Of a DNA stretch of 64,000 nucleotides, positions 1,255 through 61,800 are shown piece by piece. Source of the stretch: Cetorhinus maximus (Eukaryota); the NCBI RefSeq assembly GCF_964194155.1, contig NC_135888.1, forward strand, positions 23,064,001 to 23,128,000. Reading direction: 5' to 3'. Numbering within the stretch: position 1 is the first letter of the stretch; every line of letters begins with the position of its first letter. Position numbers and translations under genes: made by a program. Under the pieces are notes generated by a model. That model saw only the letters and a program-made list of their open reading frames with translations. It was not told the origin of the DNA and searched no databases.

Positions 1255-4017
1255 GAAGGCCAAACAAGTCCCTCTGACCCCACCCCATCTTCTAATCCCA
1301 GCCCTTGCCGTGTATTCACTGTACCCTCTGACCTTTCTCTCTGATACTGAACATTTTGTACTCCACAAAGGATACAGTTTCATCCCCTTATGCCCTGGCC
1401 TCAATGAATTTTTGTCTTGGCACGATGCTGAACTCTCTTCCGTTGCCTTTGTCTCCATGCTCACTTCTTTAGGCAGGAGTCCTCTTCCCCCATTAAACGA
1501 ATCCTTTCACCCGCCTCCAGTATCCTCCCTCTACCTGGATCCCTCCCTCTGACCTGCTCTTGATCTTTTCATTGAGAACTGTTGGCGTGACATCAGCTGT
1601 CTTAATTCCTCTGCTGCTCTCACCCATTCCAACCTGTCTCCTCCTAAGCTTGCTGCACTACATTCTCTCAGGTCTAACCCTGACTTTGTTATCAAACCTG
1701 CTGACGAGGGTGGTGCTGCTGTTGTCTGGCGTACTGATCTCTAACTTGCAGGGTCTGAGCACCATCTCTCAGACATTTCTTCCTACCTACCCCTTGACCA
1801 TGACCCCACCACTGGATATCAAGCCATTGCTCCCAGGACTGTCACTGACCTCATCTCCTCTGGAGATCGTCCATCCACAGCTTCCAACCTCATACTCTCC
1901 CAACCACGTACAGCCCACTTCTACCTCATTCCCAAAATCCACAAACAGGATTGTCCTGATAGACCCATCGTGTCAGCCTGTTCCTGCCCCACAGAACTCA
2001 TTTCTTCCTATCTTGACTCCATTCTCTCTCTCCCCTTGTCCAGTCTCTTCCCACCAACATTCGCGATTCCTCTGATGCCCTATGCCATATCAACAATTTT
2101 CAGTTTTCTAGCCCTAAAGGCCTCCTCTTCACTGTAGACACCCAATCCCTCTACACCTTAATTCCCTACCAGGACGGCCTGAGGGTGCCCCGCTTCTTCT
2201 TGAACAAAGGCCCAAACAATCCCCATCCACCATGACTCTCCTCCATCTGGCTGAACTTGTTCACTCATTCAACAATTTCCCATTTCACTTGTCTCACTTC
2301 CCCCAAATAAAAAGTGTGGCTATAGGTAGCCACATGAGCCCCAGTTATGCCTGTCCTTTTGTAGGGTATGTGAAACATTTCTTGTTTCAGGCCCCCACGC
2401 ACAACTCTTTTTTTTCGGTATGTCGATCACTGTATTGGTGCAGCTTCAAGCTCTAGTCTGGACCTGAAAAAATTTATCGTTTTTAATTTGCTTCCAATTT
2501 CCACACCTCTCACAGCTTCACATTGCCCATCTCAGACACTTCCCTTCCCTTCCTTGACCTCCCTGTCTACATTTCTGGTGATAGACTGTCCACCAATATT
2601 CATTGCAAGCCTGCTGACTTCTACAGCTACCTTGACTACAACTCCTCACACCCTGCTTCCTGTAAGGACTCCATCCCGTTCTTCCAGTTCCTCTGCCCCC
2701 AGCGCATATCTGTTCTGATGATGCTACCTTCCAAAATGGTGCTTATAGAGTGTCTTCCTTTTTCCTTAACCGGAGATGCCCCCGGCCCCCCCACCCTGCT
2801 GTATTTGGCAGGGCCCTCAACTGTGTCTGACCCATCTCCCTCACCCCTTCCCCTCCCTCCCAGAACTATGATAGTGTCCCCCTTGCCCTTACTTTTCACT
2901 TCACCAGCCTCCACATTCAAAGGATCATCCTCAGCCATTTCCGCCAACTCCAGCATGATGCAACCACCAAACACATCTTTCCCTCACCCCCCCGCCAATC
3001 AGCATTCTGTAGGGACCATTCCCTCCGTGACACCCTGGTCCACTCCTCCCATCACCCCCAACTCCTCATCCCCTTCCCACAGCATCTTCCCACGTAATTG
3101 CAGAGGGGGCAGCACCTACCCCTTTACCTCCTCCCTCACCATCCAAGGCCCCAAACACTCCTTTCAGATTCAGCAGTGCTTCACTTGCACCTCCTTCATT
3201 TTGGTCCACTGTATTCACTGCTCCCAATGCGGTCTCCTCTACATTAGGGAGACTAAACTCAAACTGAGTAACTGCTTTGCGGAGCTCCTTCGCTCAGTCT
3301 GCACACATGACCTAGACTTTCCTGTCACATGCCATTTCAACACACCATCTTGCCCTCATGCCCACATGTCTGTCCTTGGCCTGCTGCAATATTCTAGTGA
3401 AGTCCAGCGCAAACTGGAGGAACAGCACCTTGTCTTCCGGTTTGGCACTTTGCAGCCTTCTGGACTTAACATTAAGTTCAACAACTTCACACCATGAACT
3501 CTTGCCTCCATCTTTACCCCTTTTTTAATTCAATTGCTTTTTTTCACCTTTTTCAATTTTAATTATTTTATTTATTTATTGCTCCCTTTTCCTTGACCAC
3601 CCCCGCCCCCAAACAGGGCCACCTGCCACTGGCTTCTACAGTGTGCTTTCACAGAACACCGACCCTTGTTTTGCTATTAATAATCCTGCTGTCTTTCTTT
3701 TACACCACTATCAGCGCCTTCTTTAGCCTTTACCACTACCATTAACAACCCCTTGTCCTGTGTCCATGACATCTTTGTCAAAAAATCTCCTTAGCTCCCA
3801 CCTATCCCTGACCTTCTATTTTGCTCCACCTGCTCCATCCCCTCTTAACCAGTATGAAATCCATCACATTTTTATTCTCTAACTCTGAAGAAGAGTCATA
3901 CAGACTCAAAACATTAACTCTATTTTTCTCTCCACAGTTGCTGCCAGACCTGCTGAGTTTTTTCAGCACTTTCTATTTTTATTTCAGATTTCCAGCATCT
4001 GCAGTATTTTGCTTTTA
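1255..4017 (+). mobile_element. Penelope-like retroelement, decayed (RT + GIY-YIG), in a CIZ1 intron
   Basis: Frameshifted RT motifs (KPAD.GG, PKIHK..C..RPIVS) and endonuclease region HCIHCSQCGLLYIRETK. The 3' repeat contains a degenerate hammerhead at about 3881-3920. Homologous to 29573-31989. Confidence 0.9.
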
Positions 4018-5261: not shown

Positions 5262-5600
5262 GGGGAGATAGTGGCATAGTGGTAATGTCACTGGACTAGT
5301 AATCCAGAGACCCAGGCTAATGTTATGGAGTCATGGGTTCAAATCCCACCACGGCAGCTGGTGAAATTTAAATTCAATTAATAAAAATCTGGAATTGAAG
5401 GCTTGTCTCAGTATCATTGATTGTTGTAAAAACCTATCTAATTCACTAATGTCCTTTAGGGAAGGACATCAGCTATCCTTATTTGTCTGGCCTACATGTG
5501 ACTCCAGACCTATAGCAATGTGGTTGACTCTTAATTGACCCTACAAGGCCACTCAGTTCAAGGGGCAACAAATGCTGACCTTGCCACATCCCATCAAAGA
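5262..5600 (+). mobile_element. Second tRNA-derived SINE family
   Basis: A-box-like gtggcatagtggt and B-box-like gggttcaaatccc. Related copies at about 15090-15450 (+), 23655-24030 (-), 58230-58598 (-) and 58599-58800 (+). Confidence 0.72.
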
Positions 5601-7377: not shown

Positions 7378-7597
7378 AAGCAAAATATTGCAGATGCTGG
7401 AAATCTGAAACAAAAACAAAAATTGCTGGAAAAACTCAGCAGGTCTGACAGCATCTGTGGAGAGGAAGACAGAGTTAACGTTTCGAGTCCGTGAGACTCT
7501 TCATCAGAGTCATACGGACTCGAAACGTTAACTCTGTCTTCCTCTCCACAGATGCTGTCAGACCTGCTGAGTTTTTCCAGCAATTTTTGTTTTTGTT
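7378..7597. mobile_element. Fold-back mini-element made of two inverted Penelope 3' repeats
   Basis: 92-nt arms at 7409-7500 and 7506-7597, with two mismatches seen. Imperfect flanking direct repeat tgtaaaatt(a/g)tt at 7364 and 7597. Confidence 0.85.
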
Positions 7598-12612: not shown

Positions 12613-12783
12613 GTTAAGCTGCAGCGTAGCTCCCAGGACAAAGACCAGGCTGGACAAGATGATCCAGAGGATCTGATCACTGTTGATGCAGTTGGTTGCT
12701 TTGATGAAGATGATGAAGAAGGGATGACTGAGGAGGATGATGACAGCGTTTCTGATTGTTTAAGTGATAGGGATTCTCAGCAG
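12613..12783 (+). CDS. CIZ1: CIZ1 exon, acidic domain (...EDLITVDAVGCFDEDDEEGMTEEDDD...)
   Basis: Acceptor ttttgttttcag and donor CAG|gtttgt; 171 nt, phase 0/0. Contains the CIZ1 ITVDAVGCF motif followed by an acidic run. Confidence 0.93.
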
Positions 12784-16915: not shown

Positions 16916-17738
16916 CAAAGCTTCATTTTCTTTTGCTTTTGCACGTCCTTCATTGTGCTGGAAAATGGGATTAGAATAGTTAGGTACTTGTTTGACCGGC
17001 GCAGACTCGATGGGCTGAAGGGCTTTTTTCTGGGCTGTAGACCTCTATGACTCATAAGCTAATCATCTTCAGGTCCCCAAATTTATTTGAGTAGTAGTTC
17101 AAAGAAAAGACTAATTGTTTTGTATTGGAGAGTTGATCACTGAAAATAATGGTTTTAGTTTAGCCATCACTGCTGGACCCGTAGCTGTTGAGTTCACAGA
17201 CTGCACAACAGGACCTTTGGAAGCAAGCTTGAGTGAGGCTTTTCTCTTAAAGTTCAATTTGCCTTTTCCAAAATTGGAGTATCTATCTTACCTAGAACCA
17301 TTTCGTACACAACATTAGATCTCAAATTTGAAAACTGTTAAGTACTTAGTTTGTATCTGCTTAGTGCAGATAAACTGGCCCTGTAAACTGTGTAAAACTA
17401 TCCTGTAGCATAGCTATTTGTATCCAGATTCATTGCTGTGGCTTTCCATTATGGTATCATCGCGAAGCTTTCCTCTCACTAATGCACCTCCATATCTCTG
17501 AATCCTGAAAGGTGATTTCTGCTTTTGGCACATAGCCATCAATCTTAAAAAGCTAATCAGGACGACTGAGGCCGAGAGCCAAGTTTCTGTTAACTCTTAT
17601 ACAGCTGACTTTTTTGTTTAAAACAAAATTCTTGTATGCATTTCCTTTTTTTTACTTCTGATTTGTTTTGTGTGTTTTAATGACAAGGGCACATTCAATG
17701 TAACATAGTGATCGTCTTGGTTCCCCTCCCCTCCACAG

Positions 17739-17860
17739 GCCAGGAATTTGTGGTTCCTGTGACCGGTTTCCTCTGCAAGCTGTGTCACAAATTCTACCAT
17801 TCTGAGTCCACTGCCAGATTTACCCACTGCAAGTCACTGATGCATTTTCAGAACCTTCAG
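17739..17860 (+). CDS. CIZ1: CIZ1 exon, matrin-type zinc finger ([41 protein letters not shown])
   Basis: Polypyrimidine tract with acag acceptor, donor CAG|gttaga; 122 nt, phase 1/0. CxxC...HCKS..H matrin-type finger. Confidence 0.95.
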
Positions 17861-19897: not shown

Positions 19898-20091
19898 GAA
19901 CAAAAATAGAAAATATTGGAAATACTCAGCAGGTCAGGCAGCATCAATGGAGAGAGAAACCAAGTTACATTTCAGGCCTGTGATCTTTTACCAGAAGTTT
20001 CTCTCTCCACAGATGCTGCCAGACTTCCTGAGTATTTCCAGCATTTTCTGTTTTTATTTTAGATTTCCAGCAATTGCAATATTTTGCTTTT
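19898..20091. mobile_element. Older fold-back Penelope terminal remnant
   Basis: ggaaatactcagcaggtcaggcagcatc is followed by its approximate reverse complement gatgctgccagacttcctgagtatttcc. Confidence 0.7.
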
Positions 20092-21916
20092 GTAGAAAGA
20101 CAAGTTGCATTGCTGCAAGTCTTAAGTAGTTTCAATGTGTACCTGTTCCTGTACAAATAGCTAATGCTTGGTATCTGGGCACAGATTCCACATAGATCCA
20201 CATGCATTTTGTTTTTCTCAGCTTGCAACTGCTTTTTTTGTGTGAGGTCCTAGAATGGGCGATAGCGACATCGTAGAAGAATCAACCAACACACACTTTT
20301 TGGTTCCCAGTTGGTGAAATTTTTGCTTCAACATATTCAGTATGAATCACTCTGCTTTTACAATACCACCTACTCCAGCTGAATTAGATTTCAGGGCTGT
20401 TCCAATGGAGTTCCTTATAAAATAAAATCAACACCCTGTCATATTTGAATGCTCATCACATCTGCCACATGGTTAAAACACTAAGTAGCAGGAGGCAGAC
20501 TTTTGATAGGCACAAATTAGAATGGAGGGATATGATCATGTAGCCTTGGCCAGTAGTTGACATCTGGAGCAAAGCTGGAAAATAGTGGATAGAGTAGTTA
20601 AAAATCATAAGGGGTTTAAGATAAATTGAATACAGAAAAAACTGTTTCCAGTTGTTGAAGGGTCACTAACAAGGGAGCACATTTTAAGGTGATAGGCAAA
20701 AGAACCAGAGGCAACATGAAGAAAAACCTTGTTTAGAATTCAGAATGCACTGCCAGATGTGGTGGTGGCTACAGATTCAATAAGTAATAGCTTTCTAAAG
20801 GCAATTATAGAAATACATACTTGAAGGAGAAAAAAATCGCAGGGATATGGGATAAAAGAGGAAGGAGTGGGACTGACTGGATTGCTCTTCAAAAGAGCCA
20901 GCACAGATTCGATGGACTAAATGGCTACCTCCTGTGATGTGCTGTACTATGATTCTAGATATTCTTGGCTGTAAGATTTTCAGAATGATTAACGAACTAG
21001 GTGGTTTGGTCTTGTTAATGGAATACATAATTGTAGTCAGGGAAAAATTTTTCATTGGCAGTGGTTTTCAGATGGACTTGTTGGGGTTGAGTGCAAGAGA
21101 TCTGTTACCACATTGGGAGCATGTTAAGACAGGGGTGTTATCAAACAAAAGTTGATTGTGAGCTATGTGAGATTACAACATGTGACCTTAAGCTTGATCA
21201 AAGAAGTATGTTTTAAGGTGCATCTTGAGAGAGAGCTGGAGAAGGATAGGAGGGAAGTTCCACAGTTTAGGACCAAGGCAGCTGAAAGCATGGCTGTCAA
21301 TGCCAGAGTAATTAAACCAGGGGGATGTGCAAGATGCCAGAATTAGAGGAACGCAGAGATCTCTGAGGGTTATATGTTGGAAGGAGGTTACAGAGATAGG
21401 ATAAGGCGAACCCCTGGGGCACTTTGAAATCCTTCGAAATAATGTATAAATGAAGCTAAGTATTGGTAAGGTGAGTGAGTGGGCTGCTTTTTTGATGGGC
21501 AGGTGTCAACTGATAATTGAAGTTCATCATGTAACAAGTTGTACTACTGAGCTTGTAGTATTTGGGCTCTTTCTCAGGCAATGGATTGTGATGTTGGGTT
21601 GGGTGCTAAGCAGAAACTGGATAGTTCCCATAAAGTGGAATGGGAAGTTGGCAAGTAACATTCTCACTAACTTTGTAACATCAGTTACAAGGCAGCACAT
21701 GACTAAGGAGCAGATCACTTCCTCGTATACTCAACCAAGGAAGGGCAAAGAACTGGAACTTGGAAGGGAAAGCAGTGCTTTTTATAAATTAGTGACATGC
21801 TCCAATCAGTATCAAAAACTAATATTGGTTTGACTGAAAGTATATATTTTGTCATGATGACTCCCAATGTTTTGGTGCCTTTGCCCATTTTTTTTGTGTT
21901 TTCTTTGTTCAAACAG

Positions 21917-22624
21917 CGTTACAAAGCACAAAGAGCCCAAGATTATTTATCTGCCTCTGCTCAGGAACCAGCTCCTTCCGCAGGGAGCAGCCTTGGTTCA
22001 ACAGATGATCACAAGCAGGTGGAGACTGATGAAAAATCTACTGAAGCCACTGCTAGCAAGCCCAAAATGGAGGAGGTGAATTCCATATCTGAGGCCCAGG
22101 CTCCTGCACTGTTGGGTGATGGTACCGTTCCCCATGTGGACGAAGATGGTGCTTCCCATTCGCAAAGTGTTCAGCTCGAGAACCCAAGTGGTGGAACTGG
22201 AGTGATCTCTGGCAGTGCACCCACCACGGAATTTGATTGCAAACTAATTGTCATCCCTCTCTCAAATGATGAGGCACCGAGCAGCCCCAAGGAAGCGGCG
22301 GAGCAGACAGCCGGTCCTGATAAGTGTGAGGCGAGTTCTATTGCTGGCAGTGAGGTAGTAGATGACCAAGATGGGAATGAAGAGTGCGACCTGAGCTTGA
22401 CCAAAGCTGAGGAGCCTAGTGAAGCAGAGGATGGTGAGGAGGAGCCCCTGGCTGATGGCTGCCTGGCAGAGAAGGAATGCGAGGAGGTGAATGTCAAAGG
22501 GGAAGATAATGAGGCTGAGGCTGAGCTTGAGGATGATTGTAGCCACCTGGAACGCAACACCCCAAAAACAAGATCCGGGAGGGCAGCCAGAGGCCGTCGT
22601 TTCTCCTCGAGACGGAAGAAGTAA
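21917..22624 (+). CDS. CIZ1: CIZ1 last coding exon, 235 aa acidic low-complexity tail ending RGRRFSSRRKK*
   Basis: T-rich acceptor ...ttcaaacag at 21915-21916. The exon starts RYKA (CIZ1 has KYKA after the matrin finger) and stays open to TAA at 22622-22624 (ORF 21797..22624). Confidence 0.88.
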   Translation, partial: RYKAQRAQDYLSASAQEPAPSAGSSLGSTDDHKQVETDEKSTEATASKPKMEEVNSISEAQAPALLGDGTVPHVDEDGASHSQSVQLENPSGGTGVISGSAPTTEFDCKLIVIPLSNDEAPSSPKEAAEQTAGPDKCEASSIAGSEVVDDQDGNEECDLSLTKAEEPSEAEDGEEEPLADGCLAEKECEEVNVKGEDNEAEAELEDDCSHLERNTPKTRSGRAARGRRFSSRRKK

Positions 22625-23654: not shown

Positions 23655-24030
23655 ATAGTTTTTTTCTTTCATGGGATGTAGGCATTGCTGGCAAGGCCAG
23701 CGTTTGTTTCCCACCCCTAATTGCCCTTGCGCCGAGTGGCTTGCCAGGCCATTTCAGAGGGCAGTTAAGAGTCAACCACATTGCTGTGGACCTAAAATCA
23801 CATGTAGACCAGACCATAACTAAATGACATTAATGAACCAGCTGGGTTTTTACAACAATCGGTGATAGTTTCACGGTCATCATTATAGTTCTAACTTTTA
23901 ATTCCAGATTTATTCATTGAATTTAAGTTCCACCAGCTTCTGTGGTGGGATTTGAACCCTCGTCCCCAAAGCATCAGCCCTTGGCCTCTGGATTACTAAA
24001 CCAGTGATATTACCACTACACTACCATCTT
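23655..24030 (-). mobile_element. tRNA-derived SINE (same family as 5262-5600), downstream of the CIZ1 stop
   Basis: Reverse complement of head and body; 3' tail shared with the LINE at 45240-45840. Confidence 0.72.
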
Positions 24031-28414: not shown

Positions 28415-29139
28415 GCTTCAGTCAAATACTGTTTGAAATAGTTTTTAAATATATGGTAAATTTTTGCCTCTCACTAAAAGGTAGATTGTATTTTGGAAAT
28501 TCTTTATACTCTGCACTCCTTGATTTGAGATTTTTTGCGGCTTAATTGCCTCTGCACCCAAAGCACGAACTTCAAGCTATACAAGTTAACACCTATCTTC
28601 AATTTCAATCGCTACCTTGTTTCGATTAAGGCTTCTGGCCAGCAGCCTCTATATCCAGCAATTGAAGGTCATCTTATGTTAAGAGGCAAAAAAAAACAAC
28701 GGTGACATGAGGGGAAAACATGTTTATCCTGGAATCTGGAATGCTGTGCCTGAAAGGGGAGTGGAAGCAGGTTTAGCATTTTATGTTCTAATTGTTCTCT
28801 GTGGATTGAAAATGCCAGCTCCTCACTTTGCTTTCCTAGTGATCATCCTAATTCTATTATTTGCCAACCAGTGGAAACAATCCTTTTAACTTAACTGTTT
28901 TAAAATCTGTAAATTTTGAAAATATCTTCTGCTGGAGACTATTGTAGACCTTCCACCTGAGGCATTTCTGCTGCCAATGCAGGAGCTGTATGTAGACTGC
29001 AGTAAGGAATAGAAGCTCTACCCCATGAACTCATTATGCTCTCTATCCATAAAAGCAAAAAACTGCGGATGTTGGAAATCCAAAACAAAAATACCTGGAA
29101 AAACTCAGCAGGTCTGACAGCATCTGCGGAGAGGAATAC

Positions 29140-29178
29140 AGTTAACGTTTCGAGTCCGAATGACTCTTCATCAGAACT
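29140..29178 (-). ncRNA. Minimal type I hammerhead ribozyme motif (best-preserved copy)
   Basis: The minus strand reads AGTT-CTGATGA-A-GAGTC-attcg-GACTC-GAAA-CG-TT-AACT: stem I AGTT/AACT, canonical core, 5-bp stem II and palindromic AACGTT in place of stem III. Confidence 0.75.
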
Positions 29179-31853
29179 AAGGAAAAATAGGAAGATGAAA
29201 TATAAGCTGGTTTACGGTGGGGTGGGACAGGTAGAGCTGGATAGAGGGCCAGTGATAGGTGGAGAATGCCAAAAGATGTCATAGACAAAAGGACAAAGGT
29301 GTTGACGGTGGTGATATTAGCTAAGAAATGTCAGGGTTGGACCTGAGAGAACGGACTGCAACAAGTTCATAGAGAGACAGGTTAGAGTGGGTGAGAGGAG
29401 CAGAGAAATTGAGACGACTAATGTCACGCCGACAGTTCTCAATGAAAAGATCATGAGAAGGTAAGAATCCAGAGGGAGGGGTCCAGGTGGAGGGAAAATA
29501 TTGGAGGCGGGTAAAAGGATATGTTGAACGGGGAGAGGACTCCTGTCCAAAGAAGTGAGCACGGGGACAAAGGTCCCTCCACCTGGACCCCTCCCTCTGG
29601 ATTCTTACCTTCTCTTGATCTTTTCATTGAGAACTGTCGGCATGACATCAGTCATCTCAATTTCTCTGCTCCTCTCACCCACTCTAACATGTCTCTCTCT
29701 GAACTTGCTGCACTCCGTTCTCTCAGGTCCAACCCCGACATTGTCATCAAACCTGCTGACAAGGGTGGTGGTGTTGTCTGGCGCACTAACTCCTACCTCG
29801 CAGAGGCTCAGCGTCAACTCAGACACTTCCTCCTACCTCCCCCTGGACCATGACCCCACCACTGAACATCAAACCATGTTTCCAAGACTGTTACTGACCT
29901 CATCTCCTCTGGAGATCTTCCTTCCACAGCTTCCAACCTCATAGTTTCCCAACCTCAGATGGCCCGCTTCTACCTCCTACCCAAAATCCACAAACAGGAC
30001 TGTCCCGGCAGACCGATTGTGTCAGTCTGTTCCTGCCCCACGGAACTCATTTCTTGCTATCTTGACTCCATTCTCTCTCCCCTTGTTCAGTCCCTTCCCA
30101 CCTACATCCGTGATTCCTCTGACACCCTACATCATATCAACAATTTCCAGTTCCCTGGCCCCAACCGCCTCCTCTTCACCATGGACGTCCAATCCCTCTA
30201 CACCTCCATCCCCCACCGGGATGGTCTGAGGGCTCTCCGCTTCTTCCTCGAACAGAAGCCCAAACAATCCCCATCCACCACTACTCTCCTCCGTCTGGCT
30301 GAACTTGTTCTCTCACTGAACAATTTCTCCTTAAACTCATCTCACTTCCTCCAAATAAAAGGTGTGGCTATCGGTACCTGCATGGGGTATGTGGAACATT
30401 CCTTGTTCCAGTCCTACTCCGGCCCCCTCCCACAACTCTTTCTCCGGTTCATTGATGACTGCTTCGGTGCTGCTTCATTCTCCCGTCTGGAGCTGGAAAA
30501 ATTTATTAATTTTGCTTCCCATTTCGACCCCTCCATCATTTTCACATGGTCCATCTCTGACACTTCCCTTCCTTGACCTCTCTGTCTTAATTTCTGGTGA
30601 CAGACTGTCCACCAATATTCATTACAAGCCTACCGATTCCCACAGCTACCTTGACTACGCTCCTCACACCCCGCTTCCTGTAAGGACTCCATCCCATTCT
30701 CTCAGTTCCTTCGCCTCCGTTGCATCTGTTCTGATGATGCCACTTTCAAAAACAGTTCCTCTGACATGTCTTCTTTAACTGAGGTTTTCCAGCCACGGTG
30801 GTTGACAGGGCCCTCAACCGTGTCCGGCCCATCTCCCGTGCATCCGCCCTCACACCTTCCTCTCCCTCCCAGAACCATGATAGGGTCCCCCTTGTCCTCA
30901 CTTATCACCCCACCAGCCTCCACATTCAAAGGATCATCCTCCGCCATTTCCGTCAACTCCAGCATGATGCCACCACCAAACACATCTTCCCTTCACCCCT
31001 CCTGGCGGCATTCTGCAGGGATCATTCCCTCCGGGACACCCTGGTCCACTCCTCCATCACCCCCTACACCTCAACCCCCTCCCACAGCACCTTCTCATGC
31101 AACCGCAGAAGGTGCAACACCTGCCCCTTTACTTCCCCTCCTAACTGTCCAAGGGCCCAAACACTCCTTTCAAGTGAAGCAGTATTTCACTTGCACTTCC
31201 CTTAATTTAGTCTACTGCATTCGCTGCTCCCAATGCGGTTTCCTCTACATTGGAGAGACCAAACGCAGACTGGGTGACCGCATTGCGGAACACCTTCGGT
31301 CTGTCCACAAGCATTACCCAGACCTCCCTGTCGCTTGCCATTTCAACACACTGTTCTGCTCTCATGCACACGTGTCTATCCTTGGCCTGCTGCAATGTTC
31401 CAGTGAAGCTCAACGCAAACTGGAGGAACGCACCTCATCTTCCGATTAGGCACTTTACAGCCTTCCGGACTGAATATTGAGTTCAACAACTTTAGATCAT
31501 GAACTCTCTCCTCCATCCCCACCCCCTTTTTCCAATAATTTATATATATTTTTCTTTTCCCACCTATTTCCATTATTTTTAAATGTATTTATAAATGTAA
31601 TTAAATGTATTTATCTCTACCTTTTAGCCTATTTCAATCCCTTCCCCCACCCCCCACTAGGGCTATCTGTACCTTGCTCGTCCTGCTTTCTACCCTTAAT
31701 CAGCACATTCCTTTAGATAATTTCAACACCTCTTTGTCCTTTGTCTATGACATCTTTCAGCAATCTCCACCTATCACTGACCCTTTATCCAGCTCTACCT
31801 GTCCCAACTCCCCTTAAACCAGCTTATATTTCACCTCTCTTCCATTTTTCCTT

Positions 31854-31892
31854 AGTTCTGTTGAAGAGTCATACGGACTCGAAACGTTAACT
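31854..31892 (+). ncRNA. Minimal hammerhead ribozyme motif, CUGUUGA core variant
   Basis: AGTT-CTGTTGA-A-GAGTC-atacg-GACTC-GAAA-CG-TT-AACT in the 3' repeat of the Penelope element. Confidence 0.6.
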
Positions 31893-33139
31893 GTATTCCT
31901 CTCCGCAGATGCTGTCAGACCTGCTGAGTTTTTCCAGGTATTTTTATTTTTGTTTTGGATTTCCAGCATCCGCAGTTTTTTGCTTTTATAATAGAGTCAA
32001 GTATATATATTTACATACATTGTAATCTGAGAAGTGTACACAGTAGGAATAATTAGCCATTGCCAGCACATTGTTTTTACACCTGCAGCTCTAGTTTAGT
32101 GCAAGTTAAACACTCGTATTCAGGCTGGTTCCTGATCTTTTCACATTGTTCCATGGCAAAATAACAGCACCCACTGTCTGAATTGTTATCTCCTTGAAGC
32201 AAAATGGGTTATCCGTTTTTATATCATTCAATGAAGTAGCAGTAACTGCTGCAGCAGCAAGTTGGGGAGAAAACCTGTCCCTCGACATCCCGGTTACTGG
32301 CAGTGGTAAATTATCCCACAATTCTGTGGGCATAAAAATCCATGGAGGAAATAAATTAAGAACGTTACAGAAGCAAAACATTGCACAATATAAGAAATAG
32401 GAGCAGGAGTCGATCATATGGGCTGTGAGACTGCTCCGCCATTCAATATGATCATGGCTGAACCTTGAGTTTCAACTCCATTTTCCCACCCGCTTCCCAT
32501 TAATCCTTAATTTCCTGAGACACCAAATATCTCCCTATCCCAGACTTAAATGTGTTCAATGGTGGAGCCTCCACAACCCTCTGGGCTAGAGAATGCCAAA
32601 GACTCAGAACCCTTTGAGTGAAATCATTTTTCCTCAAGTCAGTTCTAAATGATTGGCCCCTTTATCCTGAGACTGTGCCCCTGTGTTTTAGACTTCTCAA
32701 CTGACGGAAGCAATCTCTATGTTTACCCTATCAAGTCCCCTCAGAATTTTGTGGGTTTCCATGAGATAACCTCTCATTCGTTGCAGATGCTGAAAATCAT
32801 AGAATGGTTACAGCACAGGAGGAGGCTATTTGGCCCATCAAGTCCATGCTAGCTCTGTAAAATCTGAAATAAAAGCAAATTGTTGGAAACGTTCAGGTCT
32901 GCCAGCATCTGTGGAAAGAGAACCAGCTCATGTTTTTGGTCGAATACCTTTCAGCTCTGTGTCCCGCCACAGATGCTAGACTAGTTGAGCATTTTCCGTT
33001 TTTATTTAACTGTGTTAAGGGTTGCCACTGAATTATAGATTTTCACAGTAGTTGTAATTTGTTCCTCCATTCTACTAATTTGAGAAGCAGTGTAAAACCT
33101 TCATTGAAAAATTTTAAGTCAGGAGCAAGCTTTTATTTA

Positions 33140-37985: not shown

Positions 37986-38516
37986 GCTCCTTTGTTGCAA
38001 TCCATGGGCAGATTGTTAAAGGGGTAAATCCTGACTATCAATTGGTTTCCAGAAAGGCACAGGAATTGTTATCTGAGTGAACTGAAAATAACAGGCTGAG
38101 TAACTCACTGGAATTGCTGCAACCTTTGTGACAAACCGAAATACGAAACAAAGACTTGCATTTATGTAGCATCTTTCATGACCTCAAGGTGTTCCACACT
38201 TTCAATATCCATTTATTAAGTGTAGTCAATGTAGTAACTCCCTTGGTCTTCATCAAAATAGTGGCCGTGGAATCTTTTACGTCCACCTGAGAGACTAGGG
38301 CCTTGGTTTAATGTCTCAGCTCAACGATGGCACCTCCAACAGTACAGAACTCTCACAGTGTTGCACTGTCGGGGGCAGTGTCTCAGGATAAGGGGTTATT
38401 CATGTAGGACTGAGGTGTGGAGAGATTTCTTCACTCAATCTTTGGAATTCTCTGCCCCAGAGAGCTGTGGATGCTCAGTTGTTGACACTGAGAGACTTCT
38501 GAACACTGAAGTTCTC

Positions 38517-40138
38517 ACAACTCCTCCCCCTCCCACAACTCTTTCTCCGGTACATCGATGACTGCTTCGGTGCTGCTTCATGCTCTCGTCTGGACCTGGA
38601 AAAATTTATTAATTTTGCTTCCAATTTCCACTCCTCCATCATTTTCACATGGTCCATCTCTGACACTTCCCTTCCCTTCCTTGACCTCTCTGTCTCAATT
38701 TCTGGTGATAGACTGTCCACCAATATCCATTACAAGCCTACCGACTCCCACAGCTACCTCGACTACAGCTCCTCACACCCCGCTTCCTGTAAGGACTCCA
38801 TCCCATTCTCTCAGTTCCTTCGCCTCCGTCGCATCTGTCCTGATGATGCCACTTTCAAAAACAGTTCCTCTGACATGTCTTCCTTCTTCCTTAACCAAGG
38901 TTTTGCACCCACGGTGGTTGACAGGGCCCTCAACCGTGTCCGGCCCAACTCCCGTGCATCCGCCCTCACACCTTCCTCTCCCTCCCAGAAACATGATAGG
39001 GTCCCCCTTGTCCTCACTTATCACCCCACCAGCCTCTGCATTCAAAGGATCATCCTCCGCCATTTCCGCCATCTCCAGCATGATGCCACCACCAAACACA
39101 TCTTCCCTTTGCTCCCCCTGGCGGCATTCCGCAGGGATCATTCCCTCCGGGAAACCCTGGTCTATCCCTCCATCACCCCCTACACCTCAACCCCCTCCTA
39201 CGGCACCTTCCCATGCAACCACAGAAGGTGTCACACCTGCCCCTTTAATTCCCCTCTCCTCACCGTCCAAGCGCCCAAACACGCCTTTCAAGTGAAGCAG
39301 CATTTCACTTGCACTTTCCTCAATTTAGTCTACTGCATTTGTTGCTCCCAATGCGGTTTCCTCTACATTGGAGAGACCAAACACAGACTGGGTGACCGCT
39401 TTGCAGAACACCTTCGGACTGTCCGCAAGCATGACCCAGACCTCCCTGTTGCTTGCCATTTCAACACCCCACCCTGCTCTCATGCTCACATGTCTGTCCT
39501 TGGCCTGCTGCATTGCTCCAGTGAAGCTCAACGCAAACTGGAGGAACAGCACCTCATCTTCCTACTAGGCACTTTACAGCCTTCCGGACTGAATATTGAG
39601 TTCAACAATTTTAGATCATGAACTCTCTCCTCCATCCCCACCCCCTTTCCGATCCCCCCCCTTTTTTTTCCAATAATTTATATAGATTTTTCTTTTCCCA
39701 CTTATTTCCATTATTTTTAAATGTATTTCCATCCATTGTTTTATCTCTACCTTTTAGCCTATTTCGATTCCTTCACCCCACCCCCACTAGCGCTATCTGT
39801 ACCTTGCTTGTCCTGCTTTCTACCCTTAATAAGCACATTCCTTAGATAATATCACCACCTTCAACACCTCTTTGTGCTTTTGTCTATGACATCTTTTGGC
39901 TATCTCCACCTATCACTGGCCCTCTATCCAGCTCTACTTGTCCCACCTCCCCCTTAAACCAGTTTATATTTCACCTCTCTTCTATTTTTCCTTAGTTCTG
40001 TTGAAGAGTCATACGGCCTCAAAACGTTAACTGTGTTCCTCTCCGCAGATGCTGCCAGACCTGCTGAGTTTTTCCAGGTATTTTTATTTTAATTTTTGTT
40101 TTTGATTTCCAGCATCCGCAGTTTTTTGCTTTTATCTT
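38517..40138 (+). mobile_element. 5'-truncated Penelope-like element with an open RT C-terminus and GIY-YIG frame
   Basis: RYIDD motif near 38548; ORF 38875-39621 ends ...GLNIEFNNFRS. 12-bp direct repeat actgaagttctc at 38505-38516 and 40139-40150. Confidence 0.92.
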
Positions 40139-42714: not shown

Positions 42715-44452
42715 CCAGCGTCAGATGGGCTCAGTTGATTGCACACTTGTCTTTGAGTCAGAAAGTTTTTTTTTGGAAAAATATACTTTATTCATAAAAT
42801 ATCTGGAAAAACATACCAAACCATTTCAAAATCACCATCACAAAGGTACAATCAGGTTCAACTTTTACAACATGTATCACGAGGTGCATCAATACAATAA
42901 ATGAATATTACAATCATTTGCAAACATTCATTTTGAGCTGTACAGCCCGAGGGGCTCTAAACAGTTCCCAGTCCCTCGGTGCTCTGTGGCAGAAAGGTCT
43001 TAGACAGTGACCCTTGCCCATTGCGCCTTTGCGGCGGCTGCCCCAAGCTTTAGTGCATCCCTCAGCACGTAGTCCTGGACTTTGGAATGTGCCAGTCTGC
43101 AACACTCGGTCGGGGACAACTCTTTGCACTGGAAGACCAACAAGTTTCGGGCAGACCAAAGAGCGTCTTTCACCGAGTTGATGATCCTCCAGCTGCAGTT
43201 AATGTTTGTCTCGGTGTGTATCCCTGGGAACAGCCTGTAGAGCACAGAGTCCTGTGTCACAGAACTGCTCGGGATGAACCTCGACAGAAACCACTGCATC
43301 TCTCTCCAGACCTTCTTTGCAAAGGCACAATCTGCAAGGAGGTGAACAACGGTCTCGTCCCCACCACAGCCACCTCGAGGGTAACGTGCCAAGGGGGTGA
43401 GACTCCTGGCATGTAGGAAGGATCTGACGGGGAGGGCCTTTCTCACCACCAGCCAAGTTACGTCTTGGTGCTTGTTGGAAAGTTCTGGTGATGAGGCATT
43501 CTGCCAAATGACTTTGACAGTCTGCTTGGAGAACCATCTCACAGGATCCACCCTCTCCTTTTCTCGCAGGGCCTCTAGGACGTTACGTGCCGACCACTGC
43601 CTGATGGACTTGTGGTCAAAGCTGTTTCTCTGCATAAATTTTTCCACGAGGGACAGGTGGTACAACACGGTACAACTACTTGGAGCGTTCTGCGGCAGCG
43701 TGGCCAGACCCATCCTTCACAACACCGGGGACAGGTAGAACCTCAGCACGTAGTGACACTTGGTGTTTGCGTACTGAGGGTCTACGCACCGCTTGATGCA
43801 GCCACACACAAAGGTGGCCATCAGTATGAAGGCGATGTTGGGCACGTTTTTTCCCCCTTTATCTAGAGGCTTGTACATCGCGTCCCTGCGGACACGATCC
43901 ATTTTCGACCTCCAGATAAAGCGAAAGATGGCTCGGGTGATCGCCATCGCGCAGGAGTCTGGAATGGGCCAGACCTGCGCCACGTACAGCAACAGCGAGA
44001 GTGCCTCACACCTGATGACCAGGTTCTTACTTTGAGTCAGAAAGTTGTGGTTCAAGCCCCATGCTCAGGATTTGAGCACCTAATTCAGGCTGACAGTGCT
44101 GAGGAAGTGCTGTACTGTCTGAAGTGCACTTTCAGATGATGTGGTAAACCAAAGCCTCGCCTACCTTTTAGGTGGATTTAAAAGATCCCATGGCAACTAT
44201 TTTGAAGAAAAGCAGGGGTATTCCCCACAGGGCTTGTTCAATATTTATCTTCAGCTGACATCACTAAAGAGTATCTGGTCATTATCACATTGCCCCTTCT
44301 GGGACCTTGCTGTGTGCCAATTGGCTGCCATGTTGCCTACATTACAACAGTGAATACACTTCAACTGAGCACTTTTTGAGGTACTACATTGGCTGAAAAG
44401 TGCTTTTAATCAACCTGAAGCCATAAAATGTGCTATATAAATGCCAGTCTTT
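42715..44452 (+). mobile_element. tRNA-derived Deu-type SINE split by the Tx1 LINE (halves 42715-42767 and 44030-44452)
   Basis: Head ggctcagttg...gagtcagaaagttgtggttcaagcccc (A/B-box-like), body ..ttgctgtgtgccaattggctgcc..acattacaacagtg.. and L2-like tail gctatataaatgc. Confidence 0.75.
42768..44029 (-). mobile_element. 5'-truncated L1/Tx1-clade LINE with poly(A) tail and 17-bp TSD
   Basis: ORF2 C-terminus with zf-RVT-like GCGGDETVVHLLADC, and one in-frame TGA at 43717-43719. AATAAA and an A-tail lie on the minus strand near 42766-42792. TSD ctttgagtcagaaagtt at 42751-42767 and 44030-44046. Confidence 0.88.
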
Positions 44453-47492: not shown

Positions 47493-47594
47493 GAAACTCT
47501 GATGAAGAGTCATACGGACTCGAAACGTTAACTGTGCTCCTCTCCGCAGATGCTGTCAGACCTGCTGAGTTTTTCCAGCTATTTTTGTTTTTGG
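47493..47594 (+). mobile_element. 102-bp Penelope terminal mini-insertion with hammerhead core, in PTGES2 intron 3
   Basis: 12-bp TSD tccacctcccct at 47481-47492 and 47595-47606. Core CTGATGA-A-GAGTC-atacg-GACTC-GAAA-CG-TT. Confidence 0.88.
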
Positions 47595-56065: not shown

Positions 56066-56251
56066 ACAAAAACAAAACTACATGGAAAAACTCAGCAGGT
56101 CTGGCAGCATCTGCGGAGAGGAGCACAGTTAACGCTTCGAGTCTGAATGACCCTTCAGGGGTCCTCTCTGCAGATGCTGCCAGACCAGCTGAGTTTTTCC
56201 AGGTATTTTTGCTTTTGTTTTGGATTTCCAGCATCCGCAGTTTTTTGCTTT
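56066..56251. mobile_element. Fold-back Penelope terminal mini-insertion
   Basis: 18-bp TSD tatcttaatatttccttg at 56048-56065 and 56252-56269. An inverted copy is followed by a direct copy of the 3' repeat. Confidence 0.85.
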
Positions 56252-56420
56252 TATCTTAATATTTCCTTGTGTGGTCTGGTGTCAAATTTTGTCTGATAAT
56301 GCTCCTGTGAAGTGCTTGGGGTGTTTTACTACCATAAAGGCGCACACAAATGTAATTTGTTATTGATAGGAAAAAGATCCAGAACAGTACCCCAAATTAA
56401 ACCACCATAGTAGGGCAAAC

Positions 56421-56556
56421 CCTGCTCCGAAGAAGGATCATACGGACTCGAAAGTCGACTGTTTTTCTCTTTCCACAGATGCTGTCAAGACTACTGAGTT
56501 TTTCCAGCATTTTCTGTTTTTGTTTCAGATTTCCAGTATCACAGTATTTTGCTTTT
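56421..56556 (+). mobile_element. Penelope terminal mini-insertion
   Basis: 14-bp TSD atagtagggcaaac at 56407-56420 and 56557-56570; degenerate hammerhead core at its 5' end. Confidence 0.82.
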
Positions 56557-56734
56557 ATAGTAGGGCAAACGTTCATATTAGTAAAATGCAAAATTAGTAT
56601 TGAGGTCAGGTACTTCAAAGAGTCGTTTTAAGTACACAGCAATATTCTAATAAATCTCTGTACCCTCAAGTGGTGGCCAGAACTGTACACAGTAATCAAG
56701 TTGTTAATCTAACTGGTGTTTTATACTGGTGTTT

Positions 56735-57559
56735 CTCCTCACCGTCCAAGGGTCCAAACACTCATTTCAAGTGAAGCAGCATTTCACTTGCACTTCCCTC
56801 AACTTAGTCTACTGCATTCGTTGCTCCCAATGCAGTTTCCTCTACATTGGAGAGACCAAACGCAGACTGGGTGACCGCTTTGCAGAACACCTTCGGTCTG
56901 TCCGCAAGCATTACCCAGACCTCCCTGTCGCTTGCCATTTCACACTCCACCCTGCTCTCATACCCACATGTCCGTCCTTGGCTTGCTGCATTGTTCCAGT
57001 GAAGCTCAACGCAAACTGGAGGAACAGCATCTCATCTTCCGACTAGGCACTTTACAGCCTTCCGGACTGAATATTGAGTTCAACAATTTTAGATCATGAA
57101 CTCTCTCCTCCATCCCCACACCCTTTCTGATTTTCCCAATAATTTATATAGATTTTTCTTTTCCCACCTATTTCCATTATTTTTAAATGTATTTCCATCC
57201 ATTGTTTTATCTCTACCTTTTAGCCTTTTTCGATTCCTTCACCCCACCCCACCCCCACTAAGGTTATCTGTACCTTGCTCGTCCTGCTTTCTACCCTTAA
57301 TTAGCACATTCCTTAGATGATATCACCACCTTCAACACCTCTTTTTCCTTTTGTCTGTGACATCTTTTGGTTATCTCCACCTATCACTGGTCCTCTATCC
57401 AGCTCTTCTTGACCCCCCCCCCAAACCAGCTTATATTTCACCCCTTTTCTATTTTTCCTTAGTTCTGTTGAAGAATCATGCAGACTCGAAACATTAACTG
57501 TGCTCCTCTCCACAGTTGCTGCCAGACCTGCTGAGTTTTTCCAGGTATTTTTGTTTTGG
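56735..57559 (+). mobile_element. 5'-truncated Penelope-like element (GIY-YIG portion + 3' repeat)
   Basis: LVYCIRCSQCSFLYIGETKRRLGDRFAEHL; 3' region nearly identical to 39255-40090. Confidence 0.9.
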
Positions 57560-57599
57560 TGCTATCAGTGCTGTTGTGTTTCTGGGATTCGGAGAAGGC

Positions 57600-59299: not shown

Positions 59300-61800
59300 T
59301 TTGAATTAACCTTAATATTAAGCATATTGGAACTCCTACATACATGAAGTTGGTTTTGAGTGTGCCTTATACAAAGATGGCTGTGTAAGTTGGAAACTAC
59401 AAAATGCCGAAAGGGCGTGAGATTTCCAGCAGGTATGAGTTTCCCTAGAGTGGCAGGGAGATGGGATCCTGAGCAGGGAGACATAAGAGAGGGAAACAAA
59501 GATAGAACTGAAAGGCAGAAAAGTAGAAAGCAAAAGTGGAAGGCAAAGGAAACCAGGGCTAGCAGCAAATAGGGCCATAGTACAATAATAAAAGTGTAAA
59601 AATGTTAAGACAAATCTAAAGCCATTGTACCTGACTGCACAGCATTCGCAATAAGGTAGACACATTAACAGCGCAAATGGATGTAAACTGATATATGATA
59701 TGATTACGATTATAGAGACAAGGCTGCAGGGTGACCAAGACTGGGAATATCCAAGAGTATTCGATATTTAGGAAGGACGGGCAAAAAAGAGAAGGTGGTG
59801 GGGTGGTGGTGTTAGTTAAGGATGAAATCAGTGCAGTGGTGAGACAGGCTATTGGCTCAGAAAATCTAGATATAGAATCAGTCTAGGTGGAGCTAAGAAG
59901 CAACAAGGGGAGGAAAACAGTAGTGGGAGTTAGTTTTAGGCCTCCAAGCAGGAGTGGTAAGGTAGGAGATGGCATTAAACAGTAAATTAGAGATGTGTGC
60001 AACAAGGGTGCTACAGTAATCATGGGTGACTTTAATCTGCATAAAGACTGGGCAAACCAAATTAACAACAACACTGTAGTGGATGAATTCCTGGCGTGCG
60101 TACAGATGTTTCTTTCAGACCATTTTGTCGAGGAACCAGCTAGGGAGCAGGCTATCTTAGATTTGGTGTTGTGGAATGAGCATGAGTTAATTAATAATTT
60201 TGTTGTGCAGGGCCCTTTAGGGAAGAGTGATCATATGAAGAATGAATTCTTCATTAGGATAGAAAGTGAAGTAGTCCAATCTGAAACTAGGGTCCTAAAT
60301 CTAAACAAAGGGAACTGCAAAGGTATGAGACATGAGTTGACTACAATAGATTGGGGAGCTTCATTAAAATGCATGACAGTGGCTAATATTTAAGGAATGA
60401 ATGCATGCATTGCAACAGTTATGCATTCCTTTCTGGCGCAAAAAAAAAACAGGTAAAGTGGCACAACCATGGCTAACGAAAGAATTTAAAGATTGTATTA
60501 GATCCAAAGAGGAGTCGTATAAAGCTGCTAGAAAAAGTAGCAAGACTGAGGATTGAGAGCAGTTTAGAATATAGCAAAGGAGGACTTGGAGATTGATTAA
60601 GAGGAGAAAAATAGAGTGTGAGAGTAAACTTGCAAGGAACATAAAAGCAGATTGTAAAAGCTTCCATAAGTATGTAAAAAGAAAAAGATTAGTGAAGACA
60701 AATGTAGGTTCCCTTATAGTCCGAAACAGGAGAATTTATAATCGAGAACAAGGAAATCGAAGAGCAATTAAGCAACTACTTTAGTTTTGCTTTCATGGAA
60801 GAAGACACAAATAACTTCCCAGAAATGCCAGGGAGCCAAGGGTCTAGTGAGATGAAGGAATTAAAGGAAATTAGAAACATAGAAAATAGGAGCAGGAGTA
60901 GGTCATTTGGCCCTTCGAGCCTGCTCTGCCGTTCAGTATGATCATGGCTGAAGCTCTATCTCAACGCCGCACTCCTGCGCTCCCCCCATATCCCTTGACG
61001 CGTTTAGAGTCCAGAAATCTATTTCTTCCTCAAATATGTACAGTGACTTAGCCTCCACAGTCTTCTGGGATAGAGAATTCCATAGGCTGTCCTTGTATAC
61101 TGGTCACTGAAAGCAAGCATGCAGGTGCAGCAAGCAGCTAGGAAGGCAGATGGTGTGTTGGCCTTCATTGCAAAAGGATTTGAGTATAGGAGCAAGGATG
61201 TCTTACTGCAGCTATACAAGGCCTTGGTGAAACCACACCTGGAGTATTGTGTCCAGTTTTGGTCATCTTACCTAAGAAAGGATATACTCGCCATAGAGGG
61301 AGTGCAGCAAAGGTTCACCAGACTGATTCCTGGGGTGGCAGGATTGTCGTATGAGGCGAGACTGGGCCAACTAGGCCTGTATTCACTGGGGTTTAGAAGA
61401 ATGAGAGGGGATCTCATTGAATCGTGTAAAAATTTGACAGGGCTGGACAGACTGGATGCAGGGATGATGTTTCCTCTGGCTGGGGGTGGGGGTGCAGCCT
61501 AGAACAAGGGGTTGCAGTCTGAAGATACAGGGTAGGCCATTCAGGACTGAGATGAGAAACTTCTTTACTCAGAGGATGGTGAACCTATGGAGTTCTGTAC
61601 CACAGAAGGCTGTGGTGGTCAAGTTACTGAGTATATTTAAGGAGGAAATGAGTTTCAAGACACTAAAGACATCAAGGGGTATGTATGGGGAGAGAGCAAG
61701 AATATGGCGTTGAGATAGAGGATCAGCCATGATTATATTGAATGGCGGAGCAGGCTCGAAGGGTCAAATGACCTACTTCTCCTACTTTCTATGTCTATGT
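59300..61800 (+). mobile_element. CR1-type LINE: AP-endonuclease region and 3' end, with an internal inverted CR1 tail
   Basis: VIMGDFNL, ILDLVL and GKSDH (endonuclease); LYKALVKPHLEYCVQFWS..VQQRFTRLIPG (post-RT). Inverted tail at about 60873-61083. Confidence 0.87.

Follow-up and report, generated by a model that had tools for sequence, protein, structure and literature searches.

Hammerhead ribozymes are nearly universal in Penelope-like elements (PLEs), but their activity in vitro is weak, and the single system that has been reconstituted inserts without them; their purpose is therefore puzzling. The locus described here raises this question anew. A window of 64,000 nucleotides from the basking shark Cetorhinus maximus (contig NC_135888.1, positions 23,064,001 to 23,128,000) contains at 29140 a motif that an initial annotation, made from the letters alone, had interpreted as a minimal hammerhead of a Penelope family. 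Can such a motif still cut, and if it can, what has become of it in those lineages of the family that stayed intact?

The flagged motif belongs to a known kind of minimal hammerhead

Read on the minus strand from 29178 to 29140, the letters are AGTT, CTGATGA, A, GAGTC, ATTCG, GACTC, GAAA, C, GT, T and AACT. This gives a stem I of AGUU and AACU, CUGAUGA as core followed by a single extra A, then a stem II of 5 bp, GAAA and the palindromic ACGU, which is the layout that had been proposed, including the GUU site. All eight copies listed by the initial annotation (3881, 7473, 29140, 31854, 39994, 47495, 56426 and 57461) are indeed present at these positions, and the one at 29140 is the only one among them that retains the core together with both stems. 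An exact core pattern matched 6,907 times in the 4.0-Gb genome and not at all in the control, and the core motif is therefore not due to chance. With the sequence 3' of the motif as a profile, 17 matches (one of them weak) were found in the window and none in the reversed sequence. An Rfam search of the window returned no hammerhead even at E<=10, and Rfam contains no matching hammerhead model; its miRNA-like matches in the window were palindromic stubs and were discarded.

The Penelope pseudo-LTR (pLTR) context and the assignment to the minimal, dimer-type hammerheads are supported, in agreement with the kind described for PLEs in the available text of Cervera & de la Pena 2014 (PMC4209133). 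As there, the motif is of type I, its helix III consists only of the palindromic 15.1-16.1 (ACGU), an extra base lies between positions 9 and 10.1, the pair 10.1-11.1 is G-C, helix I is short, both GUU and GUC sites occur, and copies are mostly solo or on opposite strands. In that work, GUU sites are described as common, monomers as inactive and dimers as weakly active, and minimal hammerheads are reported for Neptune, Poseidon and Xena elements of fish.

In case of the 29140 copy, the full core has been kept, as had been noted, but the suggestion that it may still be active is weak, because the motif lies in an arm of an old, broken insertion and has no intact partner on the same strand within the window. 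The host insertion spans 29049-31989 and its ORF is broken; the inverted arm matches 1446-1691 and 31723-31996, and no direct target-site duplication was seen. The monomer is predicted to prefer a mispaired fold (-8.2 vs -6.8 kcal/mol), with a stem I probability of 0-0.26. Most probably, this copy is no more than an inert remnant. The loss of G12 in the 3881 and 39994 copies is real, and these losses look like ordinary decay, because the position is sited in a CpG and AAAA replaces GAAA in 10 of the 52 parsed copies of a sample described below.

The host element and its copies

Copies in the window are solo, head-to-head or joined to ORF remnants (Table 1), and tandem non-coding retrozyme units were not found among them. 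Where ORF remnants with GIY-YIG matches are present, the motifs lie at their 3' end. The stub pair that begins at 7378 is flanked by a duplication of ~12 bp, and its 7473 copy is truncated within the 5' strand of stem I. The U6 of the 31854, 39994 and 57461 copies is a state shared by a subfamily.

Table 1. Family copies and hammerhead motifs in the 64,000-nt window (strand "." for head-to-head pairs).
Positions	Strand	Feature	Basis or remark
1446..4017	+	older family copy, 79% identical to the arm at 29574	sequence comparison
3881-3919	+	hammerhead with A6, G12A, G16.2A, stem I broken	within older copy 1446..4017
7378..7597	.	head-to-head stub pair, joint inside the hammerhead	arms: 7473-7511 (-), from 7506 (+)
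19899..20091	.	older head-to-head stub pair with decayed motif	sequence comparison
29049..29573	-	inverted 5' arm of the Penelope insertion, comprising part of the ORF (29322-29573) and 3'UTR/pLTR with hammerhead	tail end at 29049
29140..29178	-	hammerhead (minimal, type I) whose core has the canonical A6	cleavage after GUU predicted at 29144/29143
29574..31989	+	main arm: 5'-truncated, frame-broken RT/GIY-YIG ORF, 3'UTR, pLTR with tail	GIY-YIG E 2e-4
31854..31892	+	hammerhead with U6 (CUGUUGA), both stems intact	sequence, folding
38503..40135	+	3' half of element, 372-aa open RT-thumb/zinc-finger/GIY-YIG frame	12-bp duplication
39994-40032	+	hammerhead with U6, G12A	within 38503..40135
47495..47593	+	solo A6 stub whose start falls in the 5' strand of stem I	12-bp target-site duplication
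56066..56254	.	head-to-head stub pair, partial motif at 56157 (-)	duplication ~15 bp; absent from the initial annotation
56425..56558	+	decayed solo stub: U4C, stem II broken, stem III altered	14-bp target-site duplication
56734..57560	+	3' fragment with GIY-YIG piece; short end without tail	domain and sequence match
57461-57499	+	hammerhead with U6, G16.2A	within 56734..57560

Outside the window, intact copies exist. In a protein search, 146 copies scored with an identity of 98-100%, and in many of them a frame of 924 aa is open; the seven complete ORFs of four tandem loci (on four contigs) differ from each other at only 0-8 of 2,775 nt. The motif is located 153 nt upstream of a single 917-aa RT/GIY-YIG ORF, with a tandem period of 3.29 kb, and a pLTR followed by an ORF start was seen in 6 of the 30 loci that were fetched with a 5' ORF probe. 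The ORF matches RVT_1 (E 2e-6) and, at its C-terminus, GIY-YIG (E 5e-4), both just under the curated cut-offs, and it carries the signatures DKG, YIDD and YIGET as well as a CX4CX2C linker at residue 790, between the RT and endonuclease (EN) domains. Homologs among the 120 matches listed are RT proteins of 652-1358 aa, mostly annotated as RVT_1. A CX2-5CxxC linker between RT and EN marks Neptune and Nematis elements, and by the domain and linker criteria given in the accessible part of PMC8557442 the element fits a Neptune-like EN+ PLE. The repeat has the organization of a pseudo-LTR, with tandem and inverted copies and an optional tail of 30-40 nt that is present in 40 of 90 tail-anchored copies.

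This anatomy resembles that of the anole Poseidon element PAc, as far as described in the available text of Frangieh et al. 2024 (PMC11167929): pLTR and ORF are in tandem, the hammerhead lies near the ORF start, and the two 3' ends of the shark element, ~35-40 nt apart, match the two RT initiation sites of PAc. In contrast to PAc, where the start codon is inside the hammerhead and the core is described as canonical, the shark ORF begins 153 nt past the cut site and is preceded by a short upstream ORF, and the shark element has a Neptune-type zinc-finger linker. Non-LTR retrozymes, as presented in the accessible part of 10.64898/2026.07.22.740005, a study that sampled one chondrichthyan, are likewise hammerhead-bearing non-autonomous pieces derived from PLE pLTRs, but they form tandem arrays, whereas the shark stubs are solo or head-to-head and have duplications.

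The short upstream ORF, which precedes the main ATG (L301:3691-3723; L037, L040, L054, L058, L059), starts ~21 nt past the cut site; it extends over 30 codons to a TAA in five of six middle-aged tandem copies and over 10 codons in the youngest. An older related family (L094, L254, L264, L265, L273) has an A6 core, a stem II of AGGUC/GACCU with a 3-nt loop, and A10.1-U11.1 where the others have G-C. A loose-end consensus of low agreement (L302:3357) suggests that another organism has related copies in which GAAA is replaced by GAAG and the cut site is followed by AGCU.

Core position 6 was replaced in the younger lineages

The initial annotation had written the core as CTG(A/T)TGA and treated this as harmless variation, which does not hold: position 6 is a conserved core base, and it is replaced in the younger lineages. 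A core of CUGANGA and GAAA with a NUH site is found in the 29140 copy and in 11,281 A6 copies genome-wide. An otherwise identical pattern with U6 matched exactly 26,559 times, and patterns with a slightly looser stem II matched 21,323 times with C6 and 622 times with G6, the latter being background; such exact-match counts are biased toward young copies. In 1.06 Mb of sequence sampled without regard to the core, where 117 matches yielded 87 at >=35 bits and 52 parsed motifs, U or C is present at position 6 in 27 of these 52. When full-length motifs were anchored on the 3' flank alone, C6 was found in 27 of 28 young copies, U6 in 20 of 28 middle ones and A6 in 13 of 14 old ones, and the single young copy without C6 is a truncation. 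All 11 motifs of the four intact tandem loci read CUGCUGA, and A6 was not found in a young, intact lineage.

A tree of the endonuclease region, which does not include the motif, gives the same picture. It was calculated from those 37 of 266 candidate copies that have enough of this region, with the root assumed on the oldest window copy. The 12 C6 rows form one clade (100/99, with a bootstrap that had not settled) that is nested among U6 rows and has end branches of only 0.002-0.023. A6 is basal, A6 and U6 show no clear order in the middle of the tree, and the same order was obtained with 21 rows. To judge from these sequences, the subfamilies look like one succession.

The replacement of A6 is the point at which this family departs from known minimal hammerheads of PLEs. 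The text of Table S1 and Fig. S3 of PMC4209133 names no cartilaginous fish, and every core that is readable there has A6, whereas in the basking shark family U6 and C6 prevail in young lineages and in intact copies alike. Among the openly accessible papers that our search covered, none dealt with PLE hammerheads of sharks or with U6 or C6 cores in PLEs, and data on A6U hammerheads were not encountered. Taken alone, the 29140 copy is an ordinary member of the known kind, from which the family as a whole is set apart by its young, intact lineages without A6. Descriptors that require CUGANGA would miss most of the exact-match copies in this genome.

For C6, a natural precedent exists. The accessible text on the phage Bcep176 hammerhead (Perreault 2011, PMC3088659; Naghdi 2020, PMC7151607) describes a natural C6 core that is slow but active, with low rates in Mg2+ and a rescue by Mn2+ (PMC7151607), and CUGCUGA, the core of the intact shark copies, is the mutant core that was tested in a mouse-gut hammerhead (PMC7151607). 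The Bcep176 case, however, is one monomeric ribozyme of a phage, whereas the shark motif is of the dimer type, occurs with C6 in >21,000 copies, and arrived there via U6.

Conservation and compensated changes in the stems

Between the majority sequences of eight subfamilies, only one of 16 core positions varies, namely A6, as compared to 27 of 51 flanking positions (Fisher p 0.001, with families that are not independent). G8, G12, C3, U4, G5, A9, A13, A14, A15.1 and U16.1 are fixed in all subfamilies, as is the palindromic ACGU (15.1-16.1), and position 17 shifts only between U and C, which are both cleavable. However, a block of 31 nt on the 3' side of the motif shows equal conservation (2 of 31 positions vary), and conservation therefore need not mean catalysis.

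Inside the C6 clade, pair II.4 went from U-A over U.G to C-G, a stepwise and compensated exchange. Other stem changes are II.2 from A-U to G.U and I.1 from U-A to U.G; I.2 is a C.A mismatch in the oldest subfamily and U-A later, and 10.1/11.1 is A-U in an older family. Loop 2 and the flanks vary freely. The initial annotation had proposed compensatory change in stems I and II as a check, and such change exists but is modest: in 15 hand-picked, related copies, 94% of the cells are paired, six cells are changed on both sides (a number that none of 500 shuffles reaches), and two of nine pairs are changed on both sides (as in 248 of 500 shuffles).

Positions at which copies begin

The 5' ends of copies, counted with both arms of palindromes, cluster at -36..-31 from the cut site, i.e. 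at the start of stem I, in 17 of 70 unbiased copies and in 18 of 89 tail-anchored ones, with only five unbiased ends in the whole range of -150..-42. Twenty-five unbiased rows fall at -41..-25. Of these, 12 represent head-to-head junctions, and in 12 a stretch of >=8 nt is also found in the far flank (control 27/300). Seven of the unbiased starts near stem I have 12-15-bp duplications within 5 nt, whereas a duplication of >=8 nt was seen in only 1 of 25 tail-anchored ones. No upstream exon is attached to the stubs that start near stem I.

Starts at the cut site could have been a trace of cleavage, but this was rejected, as there is no excess of them (3 of 20 within -30..+9, p 0.46), and the centres of the palindromic junctions are split about equally between GTTAAC and AACGTT (11 vs 10 among 50 listed). 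Young copies that start at the cut site are few (75 matches vs 17,397), and 24 of the 30 inspected ones are head-to-head junctions, seven of them judged by eye. In 20 of these 30 loci, Rfam gave no rRNA match at its gathering score, in a set selected by a pattern that recovers only a share of such copies.

Two splicing arrangements were also considered and rejected. An overlap of the cut site with a branch point before a CAG/ATG acceptor fails because CAG is lost and UUAAC is variable in young subfamilies, and for an intron that would run from CAG/GT across the tail, old subfamilies lack the GT. No GT-AG joint was found in assembled contigs from six public runs, presumed to be RNA, of four organisms; such contigs are blind to starts, ends, strand and level.

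A proposed slowed self-cutter and its alternatives

How can these observations be combined? With moderate confidence, we favour the view that the pLTR hammerhead constitutes the first 39 bases of the RNA and is a slow dimer cutter that U6 or C6 slows further; the U6/C6 motif would probably be a self-cleaving one that has lost speed but is still required. The first transcribed base would be the A of AG(C/T)T, which places the start at stem I. An RT that initiates inside the tail and runs off at this 5' end would generate the solo and head-to-head stubs of ~100-140 nt, and an RT that copies tandem read-through RNA would generate the long copies. Two motifs would pair via ACGU and cut slowly after position 17 (GUU/GUC), possibly with the aid of a protein, as in case of the anole element, whose hammerhead is described as cutting only with its protein (PMC11167929). 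The replacement of A6 would lower the rate further, and a low residual rate may well be under selection, since fast cutting would strip the 5' cap and shorten the templates. Copy-start positions, which are a genomic proxy, gave no sign of cleavage. With A6C, an otherwise efficient hammerhead cut at only 3.6e-6 per min in 0.3 mM Mg2+ (PMC7151607, accessible text), and the same change on top of a dimer-only motif may abolish activity. The anole element inserts in vitro without its hammerhead, at whose cut site no RNA-seq ends were found (PMC11167929). A more elaborate version, in which the two-step A6>U>C tuning in a recently active vertebrate element resulted in a conditional cutter that needs Mn2+ or its own protein, with cutting that decaps the RNA and converts mRNA into template and with strong-stop-like cDNAs that seed the stubs, appears doubtful to us; if true, run-off cDNAs from the RNA start would have seeded tens of thousands of hammerhead stubs.

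What alternatives exist for such a slowed self-cutter? The U6/C6 motif could have ceased to cut, with fold and core kept for the binding of the RT/EN protein, for folding or for RNA dimerization, and with cleavage being dispensable. This is possible, albeit in our opinion less probable. It would explain that lineages in which a strongly deleterious position had changed nevertheless produced tens of thousands of copies, and it agrees with the missing excess of copy starts at the cut site and with the folding prediction for U6, in which G5-U7 pairs with A14-C15.2 and the core is closed. It further agrees with the in vitro insertion of the anole element, for which the hammerhead is not required (PMC11167929), and with the Naiads, which spread without a hammerhead (PMC8557442). 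A motif that only folds, however, would not account for the catalytic G8 and G12 and the further core bases being fixed through all subfamilies, for position 17 moving only between the two cleavable bases, or for C6 being the one core change that is known to leave activity (PMC7151607). Very improbable, in our view, is a conservation at the level of DNA, by an internal promoter at and after the initiator-like TTAGTTC or by descent from few masters, with the A6 changes as hitchhikers. Copy starts are concentrated at the A of TTAGTTC, an internal promoter is described for the Penelope element of D. virilis (PMC2377424, available text), and the subfamilies do resemble one succession, but the changes in the stems keep the pairing, including the stepwise compensated pair, which is not predicted by a constraint on DNA, and loop 2 and the flanks are free to change.

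A separate alternative concerns only the cluster of 5' ends, which might not reflect the start of transcription but a splice acceptor, or else an RT stop, located at stem I. In every subfamily the core is preceded by a pyrimidine tract and YAG, to which the young ones add CTAAC, and the D. virilis intron is reported to end at helix I (PMC4209133, available text). This explanation nevertheless appears unlikely to us, as the stubs with duplications begin 0-5 nt from the target without a common upstream exon, and an RT would reach the fold from its 3' side first. The family offers a natural, dated series of A6, U6 and C6, with GUU and GUC sites and a compensated stem, and as this series ends in intact, near-identical copies, the cleavage rate can be compared directly with transposition success.

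Genomic neighbourhood

The 29140 motif is antisense to a CIZ1-like gene on the plus strand, ~6.5 kb beyond its last long exon. The exon at 17720-17860 is identical to CIZ1 proteins of cartilaginous fish, and the exon at 21788-22624 was assigned by position and reading only. Upstream of these exons, weak matches resembling a C/D-box snoRNA are present at 12699-12764 (+), below the gathering score and with a best E of 0.066. Remnants of other LINEs are found at 43000-43716 (-; zf-RVT) and 59986-60393 (+; AP endonuclease), and tRNA-like repeats at 5266-5540 and 23759-24029 are probably SINEs. At another locus (L175, minus strand, from 1684), a young and intact-looking insertion adjoins a 449-aa open frame, which resembles an exon of the NACHT/NLR type.
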